Made by a program: the position numbers and the translations under genes. 64,000 nucleotides of DNA from Candidatus Thalassarchaeaceae archaeon (lineage in GTDB: Archaea; Thermoplasmatota; Poseidoniia; Poseidoniales; Thalassarchaeaceae), in the NCBI GenBank assembly GCA_029250605.1, contig JAQXEZ010000004.1, positions 35,378-99,377 of the forward strand, given 5' to 3'. Under the pieces are notes generated by a model that saw only the letters and a list, made by a program, of their open reading frames with translations, did no database searches and had not been told where the DNA came from. Positions 36,695 through 46,350 of the stretch are shown here, in pieces; the stretch's first letter is position 1, and each line of letters opens with the position of its first letter.

Positions 36695-37642
36695 ATGCCT
36701 ACCGCTGATTTGATTCCGGAATTTCTGAAGGCTACTGAAGCAGCAGCAATTGCCGCCTCAAAATGGAAGGGAATGGGCGATGGGAAGGCTGCTGATGGAG
36801 CAGCGGTGGAAGCAATGCGGGAAGTCTTTGATTCGGTACCATTTGATGGGCGGGTCGCAATCGGAGAGGGAGAGCGCGACGATGCCCCCATGCTTTGGAT
36901 AGGGGAGCCTCTAGGTTCGAAGCAGGGCGATCCAAATGCCCCATCTATCGACATTGCAGTAGACCCTCTCGAATGCACAAATCATGTAGCTTCTGACCTG
37001 CCAAATGCGATGGCCGTTCTTGCTGCAGGGCCAAGAGGGACACTTCTCCATGCTCCTGACTGCTATATGGATAAGATTGCAGGACCAGCAGAAATCTCAG
37101 GCGTAACTAGTCTGGAAGCGGATGTCGATTACAACATAGAGGGTGCCTCAAACGCACTAGGAAAGAGACCTGACGAGATGAAAGTTGTAGTAATGGATAG
37201 ACCCAGGCACGATGAACTAATTAGGGACTTGAAGCGTCTTGGAATCAATCCAATATTAATCGGGGACGGCGACATTGCTGCTGCGCTAAATGCAGCAGAT
37301 CCAAATTCGGAAATAGACATGCTAATGGGAATCGGAGCCGCGCCAGAAGGGGTGATTACTGCCACAGCATTGAGGGGGCTGGGGGCTTCATTCGAAGGCC
37401 GTTTAGTTTTCAAGAATGAAGGCCATAGGGATAGGGCAGAGAAAATGATCGACGGGGATATTGAGAGAATATGGGCTCGAGATGAATTATGCTCCTCCGA
37501 CGATTCGGTTTTCATTGGAACCGGTGTTTGTGATGGTAGGACAAAGGGAGTGGAAGATATCGGAGATGGCGGTCACAGAGTATCTTCGGAGGTAATCGAC
37601 GTCCTTTCAAAAAATCACTACATTTCTTCAAAAATTGTTTAG
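36695..37642 (+). CDS. glpX: Fructose-1,6-bisphosphatase class II
   Basis: 315-aa ORF with a GlpX-like N-terminus (ATEAAAIAASKWKGMGDGKAADGAAVEAMR) plus DPLECTN and GIGAAPEGV. Confidence 0.85.
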   Translation: MPTADLIPEFLKATEAAAIAASKWKGMGDGKAADGAAVEAMREVFDSVPFDGRVAIGEGERDDAPMLWIGEPLGSKQGDPNAPSIDIAVDPLECTNHVASDLPNAMAVLAAGPRGTLLHAPDCYMDKIAGPAEISGVTSLEADVDYNIEGASNALGKRPDEMKVVVMDRPRHDELIRDLKRLGINPILIGDGDIAAALNAADPNSEIDMLMGIGAAPEGVITATALRGLGASFEGRLVFKNEGHRDRAEKMIDGDIERIWARDELCSSDDSVFIGTGVCDGRTKGVEDIGDGGHRVSSEVIDVLSKNHYISSKIV

Positions 37643-38744: not shown

Positions 38745-38999
38745 TCAGGACTTTTCTTCCAATGCCCCGGGTCGAACCTGCCAGACACAGATTTCGTATC
38801 TCCCCGAAAGTGCTCCACCTCTTTTTGTGGTAGCCACCTTGAGGATATCCTTGTCTTTGGATAGTACATTTCCAAGCTGCTGTGGTGTTGTTCCATGCCT
38901 CATCGTTGAGTTCACATGCTCCAGAATTTCAGTGGTGTTCGCTTCCCCTCTTTCGTCCAGGAATTTTTTGATCTTTTGCCTTAGTCTTGTAGTCCTCAT
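38745..38999 (-). CDS. Small winged-helix DNA-binding protein (hypothetical)
   Basis: 84-aa basic ORF with a three-helix plus beta-wing pattern (RLRQKIKKFLDERG / TTEILEHVN / TPQQLGNVLSK / RYEICVWQV). It is transcribed divergently from the 876-aa gene out of the AT-rich spacer. Confidence 0.5.
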   Translation of the reverse strand: MRTTRLRQKIKKFLDERGEANTTEILEHVNSTMRHGTTPQQLGNVLSKDKDILKVATTKRGGALSGRYEICVWQVRPGALEEKS

Positions 39000-39164
39000 A
39001 ATTTCACTCTACTCTTTTCTGGACTCCACATTGTCCACTTTTTACAGGATGGCGGAGGGTAATATAATGCTTCTGTATGTATTTCCGCTCTTTGGTTACA
39101 AATAATGACATATTTATTCCAACTTTTTCTGAATAACTTTTGCGTATCCTTGGAGATGGGTAAA

Positions 39165-39177
39165 TTTCCACTGGAAA
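39165..39177. promoter_or_regulatory. Perfect 6-1-6 dyad TTTCCAcTGGAAA (ORB-like / operator-like site)
   Basis: Read directly from the sequence at 39165-39177 in the AT-rich spacer. The half-site TTTCCA(C) recurs in the orc1-adjacent spacer. Confidence 0.5.
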
Positions 39178-39252
39178 CATATAACTAAATGTAACAAAAA
39201 CAAATAATTTATTACTATCTTACAGATAGTCCCATTCCGTAGGTGTTTTTTG

Positions 39253-41880
39253 ATGTCAGATACTTCCTCTGTCGATCGGAAAAAAACTCCAAGAAAAATT
39301 AGAAGTAAACATCGAAGAAGGTTGCTCTCGATCCTCGCTCAGGGCGAGGCGACTGTATCCGAGCTTTCCCTCAAGTCTAATCTAAGGATGCCTCACGTTT
39401 CTGCTGAAGTAAAGAGGATGAGGGAAGATGGCTTAGCAACTAGCGATCTTCCCCCTGGTTCTAGGGGGGCTAGAATTAGATTAACCGAGAGTGGTTGGGG
39501 TATTCTGGAGGGTGACGAGTGGTCGAAAATTTTGGGATTACAAGATATACCTGTAGATAGGGATAGCTGCTGTGTTCTTACCAGGGATGAAGAAAATCTT
39601 ACTCTGTGTTTTCTGAGTACTCCAAGGGAAACAATGGTGCAGATTCCAAACCGCACCCAGCAACCTTCTCCAGATAACGAAATGTCCACCAGAAATCAAG
39701 GGGTGTCATGGAATTGGGCTGTTCTCTCTGAACACTCACCCAGGTGGTTTGATTTTAGAAAAATGGAGATCCTAGATTCACCGCCAGAATTAGCAGGGCC
39801 AGGAAGTATTGACGCCTATTCAGACAAAACCCCAATTATCGGAGTAGTTAGGGCTAAATTACTCGACGCAAACACCACCCCAATCATTTCCCCGGGAGTT
39901 TGGTTCACCCAACCCCATCAAATCCAACGTGCACCACTGGATGAGAGAACCTATCACAGAGGGGATTGGATTCTAGGTTCGCCACACAGAAAATCTCCCG
40001 ATATCAGGCCTTCACAGCCAGTTGCTGCCATAATTAAGGAGAGACTTCCAAGGTCAGTTCTTCTTAGATCAGCTAGGATAAATTCTCTCTTACTCGCAGA
40101 TTTGAGCGGTTTGGATTTGGAGGGGGGCGAGTATCCAATAGGGGCTCTGGATTATTGGATTGAGATTGCCCACCCAAGATTAACAGAAACAGAGAGGAAT
40201 AGGAGGTTGGTATCCCTAAGAGATCGAATTTCCACTTCCAGGAGAACTAAGGTTGAGGAATCAACACTTAGGAAATTCCGAAAGGAGTGGGGGGACAGAA
40301 ATTTCTCCAGCGACGAGTCAACAATCAGATCCATTGATTTGAGAGGACTTGGCAAGTCTGTAACAGAGTCCCTAATTAGATGGTCTATAGATAGGAATGA
40401 CAAACCACTGGTAGTTGAACTTCAGCATCAATTGCCTGATTCGATGTTGTCTAAAATAGCCTCAGATTCAAATCTAAGATTGGTTATAATGGAAAAGACT
40501 TCCAATCACTTTTCTTCTTTCGATATCCTGAAGATCGATCCAATTAGGACTCTGCCTTGGTTGAGTTACCAAACGAGCTCCGGAGCAACGATTCCAGTCA
40601 GAATGATAGAGCAGGGGAAATCAACAATAGATTATCCCGAAGAGGATGAGAGTAAAACAATCTCTCCTTGGGAAATATTGGGCATCTCCTCATTAAATGA
40701 AGAATTTCAACATGTAATCGAACCTTCTTCTGAATCCATAGTCAGGTCAGCATTATCCCAATTTCCCCATGGGGATGAAGAATGGGCAAACCAAATGGAG
40801 GCAAGATATCCTCTTGCAGCATGGATCGCATCCCCCAGAGAAACCAGATGGCAAAGATGGCAGCGCATCTCATCAAGATTAGAATCAGAGTGGATGGCAC
40901 TCTTAGATCTGGATTATCTGCCAATAGAGAGAATTTCCGAACTTGCAGACCAAGCCCCAGAATCAGTAAAGCAGGTTTTCTCAGAAAGTATCACATCAAA
41001 ACTTAGGGCCGATCCGGACAATCTTCTCAGATCCTGGCCAGCGATTGATCCAAACCATGCAAATAGTGGGGCAGCATGGCTTGCTTCCCACTTTATCCAG
41101 AACTCAGCTTGGCTCCCTAGGGAGGCTTATTCAGATATTCTTGGCTGGGCAGTCGAGGCTTGGCTTTCTCACCCTCCTCACGAATCTCTTGGGGCCCTCA
41201 CCGGACTAAAGTGGTTATATGGAGTCGAAAAAAAATCTCAAGAAGACCTCAACAGAGTTATGCTTAGAATCAGAGACGTTGGTTCAGAACTCCCTGAGGG
41301 GCATCATCTAAACACGTGGTCAAGGCTCTACGATTTATCTTCAGGAAAAAGAGAAAATAATCTAGATGATGTTGCTCTTTTCATCCGTGATCTCCCCAAT
41401 TCGTGGTGGGCCCCATTCTCCTCAGAATTCCTAATCATGATTTTGAATAGTCATGAAGTTGGAGGTTACCTAGAATTAGCAATCCCGTGGTGTTCAGCAG
41501 TTCTCCATCCAATAGGTGAGATTTCCGAGGCCCCCGGTCTCTCCTCGATTAGACATAAGGGGTGCGATGCGGAATTATTGTCACACCTGCAGTCATTTAT
41601 ACGAAAAAACCCAGAGGTCGATGATTCCACCTCTTTCAATCATCTTTGGGATTTACTCAATGCCATGGAATCTGCAATAGCCAAAAGAACACCTTTGGCC
41701 GGCCGAGCTCACAAATTCTCTGGATGGTTGGCTCAGCCCGAAGACAAATGGCCAGATTTCACAATGAAGATGATGATGGATGGGGATGTCAATATCTCAC
41801 AGAGACTAATCTTGGGAAAGTCCGGTTTCCATCCAGGACTAGCAGAAATAGAAGATTTATCGAAACCGTTGGGTTCTTGA
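39253..41880 (+). CDS. Large orphan protein with an N-terminal winged-helix (ArsR/MarR-like) domain
   Basis: Continuous 876-aa ORF. Residues ~20-70 (RRRLLSILAQGEATVSELSLKSNLRMPHVSAEVKRMREDGLA) look like a wHTH. No Walker motif, nuclease motif or other signature is visible in the remaining ~780 aa. Confidence 0.7.
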   Translation: MSDTSSVDRKKTPRKIRSKHRRRLLSILAQGEATVSELSLKSNLRMPHVSAEVKRMREDGLATSDLPPGSRGARIRLTESGWGILEGDEWSKILGLQDIPVDRDSCCVLTRDEENLTLCFLSTPRETMVQIPNRTQQPSPDNEMSTRNQGVSWNWAVLSEHSPRWFDFRKMEILDSPPELAGPGSIDAYSDKTPIIGVVRAKLLDANTTPIISPGVWFTQPHQIQRAPLDERTYHRGDWILGSPHRKSPDIRPSQPVAAIIKERLPRSVLLRSARINSLLLADLSGLDLEGGEYPIGALDYWIEIAHPRLTETERNRRLVSLRDRISTSRRTKVEESTLRKFRKEWGDRNFSSDESTIRSIDLRGLGKSVTESLIRWSIDRNDKPLVVELQHQLPDSMLSKIASDSNLRLVIMEKTSNHFSSFDILKIDPIRTLPWLSYQTSSGATIPVRMIEQGKSTIDYPEEDESKTISPWEILGISSLNEEFQHVIEPSSESIVRSALSQFPHGDEEWANQMEARYPLAAWIASPRETRWQRWQRISSRLESEWMALLDLDYLPIERISELADQAPESVKQVFSESITSKLRADPDNLLRSWPAIDPNHANSGAAWLASHFIQNSAWLPREAYSDILGWAVEAWLSHPPHESLGALTGLKWLYGVEKKSQEDLNRVMLRIRDVGSELPEGHHLNTWSRLYDLSSGKRENNLDDVALFIRDLPNSWWAPFSSEFLIMILNSHEVGGYLELAIPWCSAVLHPIGEISEAPGLSSIRHKGCDAELLSHLQSFIRKNPEVDDSTSFNHLWDLLNAMESAIAKRTPLAGRAHKFSGWLAQPEDKWPDFTMKMMMDGDVNISQRLILGKSGFHPGLAEIEDLSKPLGS

Positions 41881-41886
41881 GCGAAT

Positions 41887-42200
41887 CTACCTGCGGAGTA
41901 TTGCCCAACAGGCAACACCGTGTGGACAAAACCCCCACGCCGGAGGCAGAGGATGAAACACGGTACCACTGATTGGGTGACCATCCGTCGAAGACCATCG
42001 AGACTCTTCCGAGAGAATGATCGTTGGCGCAAATCGGGTGGCCGGATTGCGTTAGGTCCCCTGAGGACGGAATAGAATGAATCAAGGGACTACCCCGCAG
42101 TCCGACAGACGTCCCGGGGTGGGTCAGGCGCCTGAGCGAAGCAGTGAAGGTGGCCGTTACGCCCCGGGGCACACTAAACTAGAACGACCCCAATAGGTAG
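41887..42200 (+). ncRNA. Structured ncRNA of unsettled identity: RNase P RNA candidate (it may extend 5' to ~41783), alternatively SRP (7S) RNA
   Basis: A gap of ~320 nt that is GC-rich relative to its flanks and has no credible ORF. Pairings found by hand: 41891-41900 with 42091-42100 (9 of 10 positions), hairpins 41901-41915, 41918-41943 and 42028-42051, and a 7-bp GC helix 42113-42119/42162-42168. Motifs for both RNA families are listed in the findings. Confidence 0.55.
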
Positions 42201-43810: not shown

Positions 43811-45049
43811 CTAGAGATGGCCCTGAAGATTGTACTTGGCCATCGACGCCTCATTTACCATTGGTTCACTCTCACTCATCAGACTAATCGCATCAATTGC
43901 TTTTGGGATCGCTGAGTTAACCTGCTTGCTCCTGCCCCCCCTCCCCTTGCTAACATTCCTAGCCATAATCAGCCCCATTGTGTCAAGTTCGTTAAGTAAT
44001 GAAGAAACCCTTCTTGTGGTCAGTGGTTCGGTCCCAATCTTAGAGCAGGCTTCAGAATATGTCCTGTACACCTCGCCTGTGGAAATGTTCCTCAACCCGT
44101 TTTCTTCATTTAGACAAATCGAGAAAAGAACTAATTTTTGATGAAGGGGGAGCGTCTTGATTACCGGCGTAACCTGATCATATTCTAACTGGCTTTGAGC
44201 CAATCTAACATGCTTGGTGTCCACATTACCTTGTGCCCTTTGCTCTGCCTTTTGGACAGAGATTCTTAGAAGATCCAAAGCCCTCCTTGCATCTCCATGT
44301 TCTTGGGCGGCTAGAGCAGAACAAAGCCGAATCACCCCATCATCGAGAACCCCTTCTTTGATTCCCATCGATGCCCTCTCACTCAAAATGTTCTGAATTT
44401 CAGTTGCCACATATGGGTGGAAGACAATATCCTCCTGACTCAGCCTCGAGCTCACACGTGGATCTAAGTGCTGAGTAAAGTGCAGATCGTTACTGATGCC
44501 GATAATGGAGCATCTCCCATTCTCTATCAGTGTGTTCAGGCTAGTAAGTGCATAAAGAAGATCATCCCCGCCTTTATCGACTAGATTGTCAACTTCATCA
44601 AGCACGATAATGTGCACCCCTCCGACCCTGCTCATCCTTGAAACGACTGTCTCCAGGACACGGTCCGTAGGCCATCCAGTGAATGGTACCGGAGCATCTC
44701 CTCTCTGTGCTAATTGAGTTGCAATAGTTTGAACAACTCTATATTTTGTGTCAACATTCCTGCAATTGATTTCGTAGGTCTTTACGGTCTGACCCATCTC
44801 CAGTCCCTTTTCCCTTAGTTGACTTAGGACGAATCTTGTTACCACGGTTTTACCCGACCCAGGAACTCCATAGAGGAGCATATTGGATGGTATATGGCCA
44901 TTTAATGCGTCAACAAGATTTCGAACTAGAGAATCCACTTCATGTTCCCTATGGGGGAGACGAGCTGGTTCGAATGCGTGGTCAAAGGCCTTTCTGTCGA
45001 CAAACAGACTATCCTGCCCAAGAATCTCTTCGAAAATATTTCCTCTCAT
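43811..45049 (-). CDS. cdc6: Orc1/Cdc6 replication initiator
   Basis: 412-aa ORF with the AAA+ Walker A motif YGVPGSGKT, Walker B IIVLDEVD, the sensor GISND, the conserved LPHRE N-terminal motif and a C-terminal winged helix. Confidence 0.95.
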   Translation of the reverse strand: MRGNIFEEILGQDSLFVDRKAFDHAFEPARLPHREHEVDSLVRNLVDALNGHIPSNMLLYGVPGSGKTVVTRFVLSQLREKGLEMGQTVKTYEINCRNVDTKYRVVQTIATQLAQRGDAPVPFTGWPTDRVLETVVSRMSRVGGVHIIVLDEVDNLVDKGGDDLLYALTSLNTLIENGRCSIIGISNDLHFTQHLDPRVSSRLSQEDIVFHPYVATEIQNILSERASMGIKEGVLDDGVIRLCSALAAQEHGDARRALDLLRISVQKAEQRAQGNVDTKHVRLAQSQLEYDQVTPVIKTLPLHQKLVLFSICLNEENGLRNISTGEVYRTYSEACSKIGTEPLTTRRVSSLLNELDTMGLIMARNVSKGRGGRSKQVNSAIPKAIDAISLMSESEPMVNEASMAKYNLQGHL

Positions 45050-45451
45050 TTTTTTTCACTTCGGTAAATCCATAACGAAATGGCATTCTACCCCCCCATT
45101 GGGTTGATTGCTTCTCGTGAGGTTTCCACAGCGACTATGTTTGTGGTAATAAGAGTGACTCGCTTCGTCAAATAATAATCATGTTTTGATTACAATATTA
45201 TACACTTCTCTCCTTAGTCATCTTATACCTCAGCTATGTAATGAAATATAATTCAGTATCGTCTTTTTCTTAAATTATTACTGGTGCATTTTCCACATCG
45301 ATAGAAGAGAAATTTTGTTTTCCAGCAAGTAAACAAGGGATTCCAAATTAAACCCTCCAAGCAAAGCATTAGGATCTGAAATATTTTTTCCAAAATCAGA
45401 TATGGCCTATCTAATATCAATTCAGATATATATAATGGAAAACTTATTCTC
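45050..45451. other. Candidate replication origin (oriC): AT-rich unwinding region with repeated ORB-like half-sites
   Basis: A 402-nt non-coding spacer directly upstream of orc1/cdc6. TTTCCACA occurs at 45123-45130 and 45290-45297 and flanks a very AT-rich block (~45170-45285). There are further TTCCA sites at 45320, 45341 and 45388 and an inverted TGGAAA at 45436. Confidence 0.5.
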
Positions 45452-46240: not shown

Positions 46241-46350
46241 ATGTTCCGACAGGAGTCTTCTGACTTGACCCCATCGTTTGTCGCTGCAGAGTCATTACTC
46301 TACGCATTTGTTCATATATCCTAGTTAAGTCGGAAATATCGGGGATATGG

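Follow-up and report, generated by a model that had tools for sequence, protein, structure and literature searches.

A conserved dyad resembling origin recognition boxes, and a box inside the adjacent gene, near orc1 in Poseidoniales archaea

The described elements closest to those reported here come from the Methanomassiliicoccales, from Pyrococcus and from Sulfolobus. In the Methanomassiliicoccales, which like the Poseidoniales belong to the Thermoplasmatota, origin recognition boxes (ORBs) were predicted at origins linked to orc1/cdc6.1 (PMC4153887, Table 2). The archaeal consensus ORB was given as CTTCCAGTGGAAACGAAAGGGGT, and ORB3 of 'Ca. Methanomethylophilus alvus' reads TTTCCACTGGAAACAG-AGGGGT (PMC4153887). 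The 13-bp mini-ORB of Pyrococcus is TTCCAGTGGAACT, with TTCC and GAA as invariant core motifs; a single mini-ORB binds Cdc6 weakly, an isolated genomic copy was unbound in vivo, and a second ORB cluster within the dp1 coding gene was bound by Cdc6/Orc1 in vivo (PMC1904270). At Sulfolobus oriC1, as outlined in PMC12141716, ORB2, an AT-rich unwinding element and ORB3 follow each other, with Orc1-1 monomers of defined polarity. Here we describe a palindromic dyad of this kind in the spacer 39000-39252 of a 64-kb window (the whole stretch of 64,000 nucleotides that was analysed) from a Candidatus Thalassarchaeaceae archaeon of the order Poseidoniales, together with a full ORB inside the neighbouring gene, which encodes a protein of 875 amino acids (875-aa protein).

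The Poseidoniales (Marine Group II) are among the most abundant planktonic archaea and are without a cultured representative, and a full-text literature search found no report of a replication origin or of Orc1 sites in Marine Group II. The locus was compared across 80 species-level Poseidoniales loci. A preliminary description of the window, made from its letters, had pointed to the dyad and to several accompanying repeats, and had proposed a second Orc1-bound site, which might be a second or bipartite origin, an Orc1-controlled promoter or the operator of two flanking winged-helix proteins.

The promoter dyad and the intragenic ORB

The two elements are as follows.
39165..39177, no strand assigned: mini-ORB-like palindrome TTTCCAcTGGAAA, lacking a G-string on both strands
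39683..39704, plus strand: full ORB TGTCCACCAGAAATCAAGGGGT, consisting of a dyad remnant, a 4-nucleotide (nt) spacer and GGGGT, and encoding S145-T-R-N-Q-G150-V

The dyad is a perfect 6-1-6 palindrome, often 7-1-7 in orthologues, whose central base varies freely (C, G, A or T) and whose best-conserved bases in the alignment are TTCC and GGAA. The sequence 39165-39178, TTTCCACTGGAAAC, equals the first 14 bases of the published ORB3 from 'Ca. M. alvus' and so is identical to its dyad; it also fits the archaeal consensus and is close to the Pyrococcus mini-ORB. The core TTCCA-N-TGGAA(A)(C/T), including TTCC and GAA, is complete. The ORB likeness seen in the preliminary description therefore holds for the dyad, and the dyad is kept at a fixed position upstream of the 875-aa gene, in the window 76 nt before the start codon. 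A TATA-like box (TTTATTA, 39208-14), presumably part of the promoter of this gene, is centred some 40 nt downstream of the dyad centre (39171).

The exact sequence TTCCANTGGAA was present at one fixed position, about 88 nt upstream of the 875-aa gene, in 41 of the 80 loci, and the relaxed form TYCA-N3-GAAA at the dyad position in 74 of 78. Elsewhere in 1.25 Mb the exact sequence occurred once, with 1.3 copies expected by chance. The dyad always co-occurs with the 875-aa gene and the divergent gene for a DUF3860 protein. Within the window the statistics are unremarkable: some perfect 6-1-6 palindrome appeared in 9.6% of the spacer shuffles, and three matches with at most two mismatches were found against 2.4 expected. 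Chance is excluded because the dyad is kept at one position across orthologous loci, and the alignment of orthologous spacers confirmed its strong conservation. Judged from these alignments, the dyad is genuine and conserved throughout the order. Some 30 nt upstream of the dyad, many genomes carry another, degenerate element similar to GGTGyrGAAATGAAAC. A search of the spacer against Rfam returned only a spurious sub-threshold match.

A full ORB is distinguished from a mini-ORB by a G-string (GGGGT) located 4-5 nt 3' of the dyad. With a 22-nt matrix derived from ten published Methanomassiliicoccales ORBs, the top match in the window was 39683-39704 (TCCACCAGAAATCAAGGGGT), located 518 bp downstream of the dyad and 430 nt into the 875-aa gene. 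It scored 18.3 bits, a value that none of the 20 shuffles reached. Of the 114 matches with at least 12 bits in the 80 loci, 76 fell into a single 250-nt bin (+250 to +499), and the listed matches lay at +409 to +442, mostly at +430. Several intragenic ORBs were nearly perfect, for example GTTCCACTGGAAATGATGGGGT with 32.8 of the possible 34.8 bits. A lineage-derived matrix (TCCAyndGAArynArGGGGT) detected the intragenic ORB in 77 loci, so that the dyad is not isolated there, and no other comparable conserved site within 8-10 kb, the upstream spacer of orc1 included.

The intragenic element encodes S-T-(R/G)-(N/S/R)-x-G-V across orthologues, and its GGGGT was invariant in all 45 unique sequences. 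The codon for Ser145 was TCC in 47 of 48 sequences (67 of 68 in the larger count) and that for Gly150 was GGG in 49 of 49 (67 of 67). At the third position of the box (Arg or Gly) the codon was always NGA, and the fourth codon always began with A, whichever amino acid was encoded. Two codons after the box, an invariant Ser is encoded by TCT, TCA, TCG and TCC, and six codons after it an Ala by all four Ala codons. The whole gene contained 244 conserved degenerate codon columns (69 sequences), with a mean relative entropy of 0.87 (0.85 for the 4- and 6-fold columns). The only 4- or 6-fold columns with almost no synonymous variation were Ser145 and Gly150, both within the box. The encoded segment is part of a predicted disordered loop (residues 138-150). 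Codon usage thus indicates that the constraint at the intragenic ORB is on the DNA and not on the protein.

The two elements also resemble each other. The 11-mers CTCCATAGGAA, TTCCACAAGAA and TTCCATAGGAA recur unchanged at both elements, at the promoter in certain genomes and inside the gene in different ones. The clade of the window combines a perfect promoter dyad with a degenerate intragenic one, and the other clade tends to the reverse (r = -0.56 between the perfection of the two elements, a value confounded by phylogeny). In sequence, the two elements have the look of sites that a single protein would bind. A weaker ORB-like sequence, CTCCAAGGGAAACAATGGTGC, lies at 39620-39640 on the plus strand, 63 nt upstream of the intragenic ORB and in the same orientation; it was found in 13 loci only, the closest relatives of the window among them.

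Among the features listed in the preliminary description, only the dyad exceeds chance. The motifs themselves all exist as described: besides the dyad, TCCAC at 39025-29 and 39034-38, ATTTCCG at 39081-87, ACTATCT-tac-AGATAGT at 39214-39230, TTTATTA and the ATG at 39253. The TCCAC copies and ATTTCCG, considered as half-sites, are unconserved in orthologous spacers. The second inverted repeat (39214-39230) had been described as operator-like; its right arm, AGATAGT, is unconserved, and its left arm is kept only within the promoter block TTTATTACTATCT. The heptamer TTTCCAC had been described as repeated in the orc1 spacer. It occurs 20 times in the window (10 expected), scattered and mostly outside these two spacers, and both copies in the orc1 spacer vary in orthologues.

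The dyad had also been suggested as a second site beside a first one at orc1. No ORB-like element was found in the orc1-adjacent spacer 45050-45451, though conserved blocks exist there, and the dyad locus is therefore not a 'second' site. One of these blocks (45091-45111) consists of a C-run and, after it, the 4-1-4 palindrome CCCAtTGGG, whose core CCAnTGG also occurs in the dyad; it does not score as an ORB and is possibly an autoregulatory site in the orc1 leader region. Another (45145-45157, GGTAATAAGAGTG) is a minus-strand TATA-like box, roughly 100 nt away from where orc1 starts, and one of the TTTCCAC copies lies just downstream of the presumed orc1 TATA box. The sequence GATATATATAATGG is found at 45425-45438, just past the 3' end of the gene with the metallo-beta-lactamase fold, and its core TATAnATA is near-invariant in the clade of the window (24 sequences) amid a variable AT-rich stretch.

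Further candidate ORBs were rejected. Block A (39039-39061), considered as a third, diverged ORB, reached 8-9.6 bits in 8 loci with the matrix from published ORBs and was unsupported by the lineage matrix. A minus-strand match at 39878-39899 was without synonymous-site constraint. The sequence AAACGATGGGGT at 46269-46290, a possible half of an inverted pair, was restricted to the subclade of the window, and its conserved part was TCAAGTC, not the G-string; a role as the start codon of the metallo-beta-lactamase-fold gene was ruled out by the differing frame. A match in glpX, GTTCCAATGAAAAC (37500-37521), was above the score threshold in only 9 of the 80 loci.

Gene context and other conserved features

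The genes and remaining conserved features of the locus are the following.
39253..41880, plus strand: 875-aa gene, present in 80 of 80 Poseidoniales loci
38745..38999, minus strand: DUF3860 gene, 84 aa (Pfam E 4e-40), related to PDB 2od5
43811..45049, minus strand: Orc1/Cdc6 initiator gene, assigned to the Orc1-1 class, presumed binder of ORB elements
39179..39228, no strand assigned: AT-richest 50-mer of the window, 16% G+C, directly right of the dyad
39095..39110, no strand assigned: GTTACA-N4-ATGACA, conserved, with GTTACA-N4-GTTGCA in other genomes
39045..39077, minus strand: conserved block CAGGAtgGCGGagGGTAATATAAtGCTTCTGTA containing the TATA-like TTATATTA (minus strand, 39060-67), putative DUF3860 promoter
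39241..39255, plus strand: Shine-Dalgarno-like AGGTG (39241-45) and ATG start (39253), conserved, with a GTG start in many orthologues

Every locus that was long enough displayed the same gene order: glpX, class-I aldolase, DUF3860 (-), 875-aa gene (+), CTP-transferase/DUF359, a 178-aa gene (-), orc1 (-) and the metallo-beta-lactamase-fold gene (-). The spacer 39000-39252 separates the divergent DUF3860 (-) and 875-aa (+) genes and is AT-rich, as had been noted, with 33% G+C compared with 45-48% for the genes on either side. The intragenic ORB is 4.1 kb and the dyad 4.6 kb away from the 3' end of orc1, with three genes and a structured RNA between. Among PDB entries the Orc1 matched best 2v1u (E 2e-93; Aeropyrum pernix ORC1 bound to ORB DNA) and 2qby_A (E 6e-92; S. 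solfataricus Cdc6-1), and more weakly Cdc6-3 (E 6e-43) and ORC2 (E 2e-23). These matches place the local Orc1 in the ORB-binding Orc1-1 class.

Relatives of the 875-aa protein are full-length (about 840-876 aa), with identity down to 42%. Of the two winged-helix proteins proposed to flank the spacer, the 875-aa protein has an ArsR/MarR-like winged helix at its N-terminus, indicated by weak Pfam matches to HTH_5 and by structural matches; beyond this domain nothing in Pfam, in NCBIfam, among PDB sequences or in the fold comparison matched. For DUF3860 the topology (helix-helix-helix-strand-strand) is compatible with a winged helix, and a single-sequence model gave no confirmation of that fold, the model being poor and the fold search meaningless. 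The related PDB entry 2od5 is a solved structure from an ocean metagenome annotated as 'hypothetical protein'. DUF3860 identity was 89-100% in all carrying loci except one, even where the identity of the 875-aa protein was only 42% and that of Orc1 75%. This level of conservation suggests a core chromatin or regulatory role.

In the spacer alignments the roughly 250 nt upstream of the 875-aa gene consist of near-invariant blocks alternating with scrambled segments. The AT-richest block, 39179-39228, is also a conserved promoter block, with the hexamers TATAAC/TGTAAC (39180-85 and 39190-95) and the TATA-like box at 39208-14. The pair at 39095-39110 is the inverted counterpart of TGTAAY-N4-TGTAAC (39180-39195); both have a 10-nt period and they are about 85 nt apart. 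The right-hand pair adjoins the dyad, and both pairs are conserved order-wide. They are probably the site of another DNA-binding protein. A box of the TTATTAC type, as in the putative DUF3860 promoter block, recurs in front of both the 875-aa gene and orc1. At 39021-39038, within what is presumably the 5' leader of DUF3860, lies GGAC-N8-GTCC, and orthologues have other sequences there that are still self-complementary (GACCC...GGGTC, CGGCTCC...GGAGCCG). No consensus hairpin was obtained by RNAalifold from 22 sequences, possibly owing to register shifts.

In a more distant clade (loci L038-L082) the spacer is about 550 nt and thereby about 300 nt longer. The extra sequence follows the DUF3860 start and is conserved, perhaps in a coding-like manner; a further small gene may therefore precede DUF3860 in the same orientation. 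Beside the 875-aa gene, this clade has the same promoter architecture as elsewhere.

A structured RNA of about 270 nt (41903-42173, plus strand, 58% G+C) lies between the 875-aa and CTP-transferase/DUF359 genes, and the spacer holding it was present in 64 of the 64 loci measured. RNAalifold on 14 diverse loci gave 69 pairs, 21 of them with compensatory changes, and 97.6% of cells paired. The observed covariation was reached in 0 of 500 shuffles, and slid controls gave 1-8 compensatory pairs. No Rfam 15 family was assigned in the window (E<=1) or in 7 other loci (gathering thresholds). Its GGUCAGG...AGCAG motif is presumably like that of helix 8 in signal recognition particle RNA.

Readings of the pair

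We think it rather likely that the dyad is a conserved mini-ORB-type site for Orc1-1 which works with the intragenic full ORB. From the identity of the motif, its conservation, the selection acting at the DNA level and the class of the local Orc1 we infer binding and its effect as follows. Orc1-1 would bind the intragenic ORB as an oriented monomer and the palindromic promoter dyad in one or both orientations. The two occupied sites would flank the divergent promoter region together with the window's AT-richest DNA. The pair might then serve for Orc1 recognition at the chromosomal origin of the Poseidoniales, the AT-rich block being the place where DNA is unwound or MCM loaded, or Orc1 occupancy might control transcription of the divergent 875-aa and DUF3860 genes. 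We hold an origin-associated function to be a tentative possibility. In its favour, the intragenic ORB is the only one near orc1, and an AT-rich stretch (39179-39228) adjoins the dyad.

Several observations weigh against Orc1-1 binding or against an origin. The promoter dyad has no G-string on either strand (...GGAAACATATAACT and ...GGAAATTTACCCAT) and is therefore at most a mini-ORB, and in Pyrococcus a lone mini-ORB binds Cdc6 only weakly and an isolated genomic one is unbound in vivo (PMC1904270). Only one polar ORB, on the plus strand, is present at the locus, its partner being a palindrome of ambiguous polarity; the classic inverted pair of ORBs around an unwinding element is absent, and no conserved minus-strand ORB was found within 8-10 kb. 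The AT-rich block is itself a conserved promoter. The symmetry of the dyad and its fixed distance from TATA would fit a dimeric winged-helix factor equally well, and two candidates are encoded alongside.

Composition gave no sign of an origin either. The G/C asymmetry at 4-fold sites showed no polarity switch at the locus in the 64-kb window: the strand term was -0.11 overall, -0.09 left and -0.14 right of 39.1 kb, and weighted residuals of 105.7 were reduced to 58.5 by the model without a switch and hardly changed with a switch at 39.1 kb (105.3) or at 45.25 kb (100.4). The strand term was negative on both sides in most of 54 loci. At these sites the plus strand is rich in C relative to G whatever the gene orientation, uniformly over all 64 kb (coding-strand skew about -0.19 for plus-strand and +0.03 for minus-strand genes), and most genes are on the plus strand on both sides of the locus. 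The asymmetry could instead come from expression-linked codon choice. The missing switch lowers the origin reading without excluding it, because skew is a poor guide in some archaea; compositional skew is described as an unreliable origin indicator for several archaeal groups in PMC4640148.

Orc1 may also bind here without any origin, the mini-ORB and the ORB linking the state of the initiator to how the 875-aa and DUF3860 genes are expressed, for example by way of a loop or a roadblock between the two sites. We place such a purely regulatory pair, tying the divergent promoters to Orc1, on the unlikely side. The fixed promoter geometry is in agreement with it, as is the lack of a polarity switch both at the locus and at the orc1 spacer, with mostly plus-strand genes on either side. 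A precedent is the in-gene ORB cluster of Thermococcales in dp1 near orc1, which is occupied by Cdc6/Orc1 in Pyrococcus (PMC1904270). The unreliability of skew takes some weight from the second of these points, and in the 8-10 kb around orc1-1 no better origin candidate was found. Canonical ORBs otherwise typify origins.

A serious alternative, about equally unlikely in our estimate, is that the dyad serves as operator of a local dimeric winged-helix factor, either the N-terminal domain of the 875-aa protein or DUF3860, on the divergent promoters, its ORB likeness being coincidental or convergent. A symmetric palindrome with a free central base, at a fixed TATA distance within a densely conserved divergent promoter, would suit such a factor; the palindrome stands in the promoter region of a gene that itself encodes a winged helix, always accompanies these two genes, and no skew switch argues for an origin. 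This would leave unexplained a copy of the motif, with the ORB-specific A-rich spacer and GGGGT, that lies 430 nt into the gene and is kept constant there at synonymous sites. Archaeal repressors usually sit over TATA or the transcription start, and the dyad, some 40 nt upstream of the TATA-like box, would overlap neither TATA and the B recognition element (BRE) nor the transcription start. A further copy that would point to a regulon was found neither in the 64-kb window nor in the other 1.25 Mb, where the exact sequence occurred once.

A bolder form of the Orc1-1 reading holds that this locus, and not the orc1-adjacent spacer, is the Poseidoniales chromosomal origin, with the order-specific 875-aa protein and the ultra-conserved DUF3860 protein as lineage-specific origin-associated factors. 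The origin would comprise one palindromic mini-ORB in a divergent promoter and one polar ORB in coding sequence, and the phased GTTACA/TGTAAC hexamers would be the sites of the two proteins. Such factors would be analogous to WhiP at Sulfolobus oriC3 or to the ucm-binding protein UBP. We regard this proposal as doubtful.

That the palindrome is a functionless product of an AT-rich spacer, which the shuffles and the expected number of near matches would allow, is hardly credible, and is refuted by one position being kept in 41-74 species-level genomes, with the adjacent protein down to 42% identity and the nearby spacer scrambled.

An order-wide locus of Orc1 type offers a concrete target for tests with recombinant Orc1 and might anchor coverage-based (peak-to-trough) estimation, from metagenomes, of how fast these archaea grow in situ. 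The locus would also be a clean natural example of a coding sequence constrained at synonymous sites by an overlapping initiator-type site. In the Poseidoniales, the spacer beside orc1 should not be assumed to be the origin.

Relation to described systems

The elements are similar to those of the Methanomassiliicoccales. The dyad TTTCCACTGGAAAC occurs verbatim in one of their ORBs, and several Poseidoniales intragenic elements, such as GTTCCACTGGAAATGATGGGGT, match the whole 22-nt box almost perfectly. However, the orc1-adjacent ORBs of Methanomassiliicoccales are intergenic, mostly paired and in several cases inverted, whereas in the Poseidoniales the dyad is without a G-string, the sole full ORB is intragenic, the elements are 4-6 kb from orc1, and there is no inverted polar pair.

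With Pyrococcus and the Thermococcales the locus has in common a 13-bp TTCC...GAA dyad without a G-string, and ORB elements inside a protein-coding gene near orc1 that are conserved order-wide. In contrast, the intergenic oriC of Pyrococcus beside orc1 contains many mini-ORBs and two long inverted ORBs; the Poseidoniales have one or two mini-ORB-like elements and one ORB, and the own spacer of orc1 is empty of ORBs. Sulfolobus oriC1 is alike in its Orc1-1-class initiator, its ORB-type sequence and an AT-rich stretch adjoining the recognition site. It differs in the inverted polar ORB pair, which the outline in PMC12141716 gives as essential in Sulfolobus and which is absent here, where the spacing of 518 bp spans a promoter and 430 nt of coding sequence. 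Within the class of ORBs and mini-ORBs, the Poseidoniales stand out by a full box written into coding sequence and by a spacer beside orc1 that is empty of ORBs.

The palindromic operators of ArsR/MarR proteins are similar in that a perfect short palindrome is located in the promoter of a gene encoding an ArsR/MarR-like winged helix. Unlike these operators, the Poseidoniales dyad lies upstream of TATA, is identical to an ORB dyad, and has a G-string-bearing twin that is under DNA-level selection within coding sequence.

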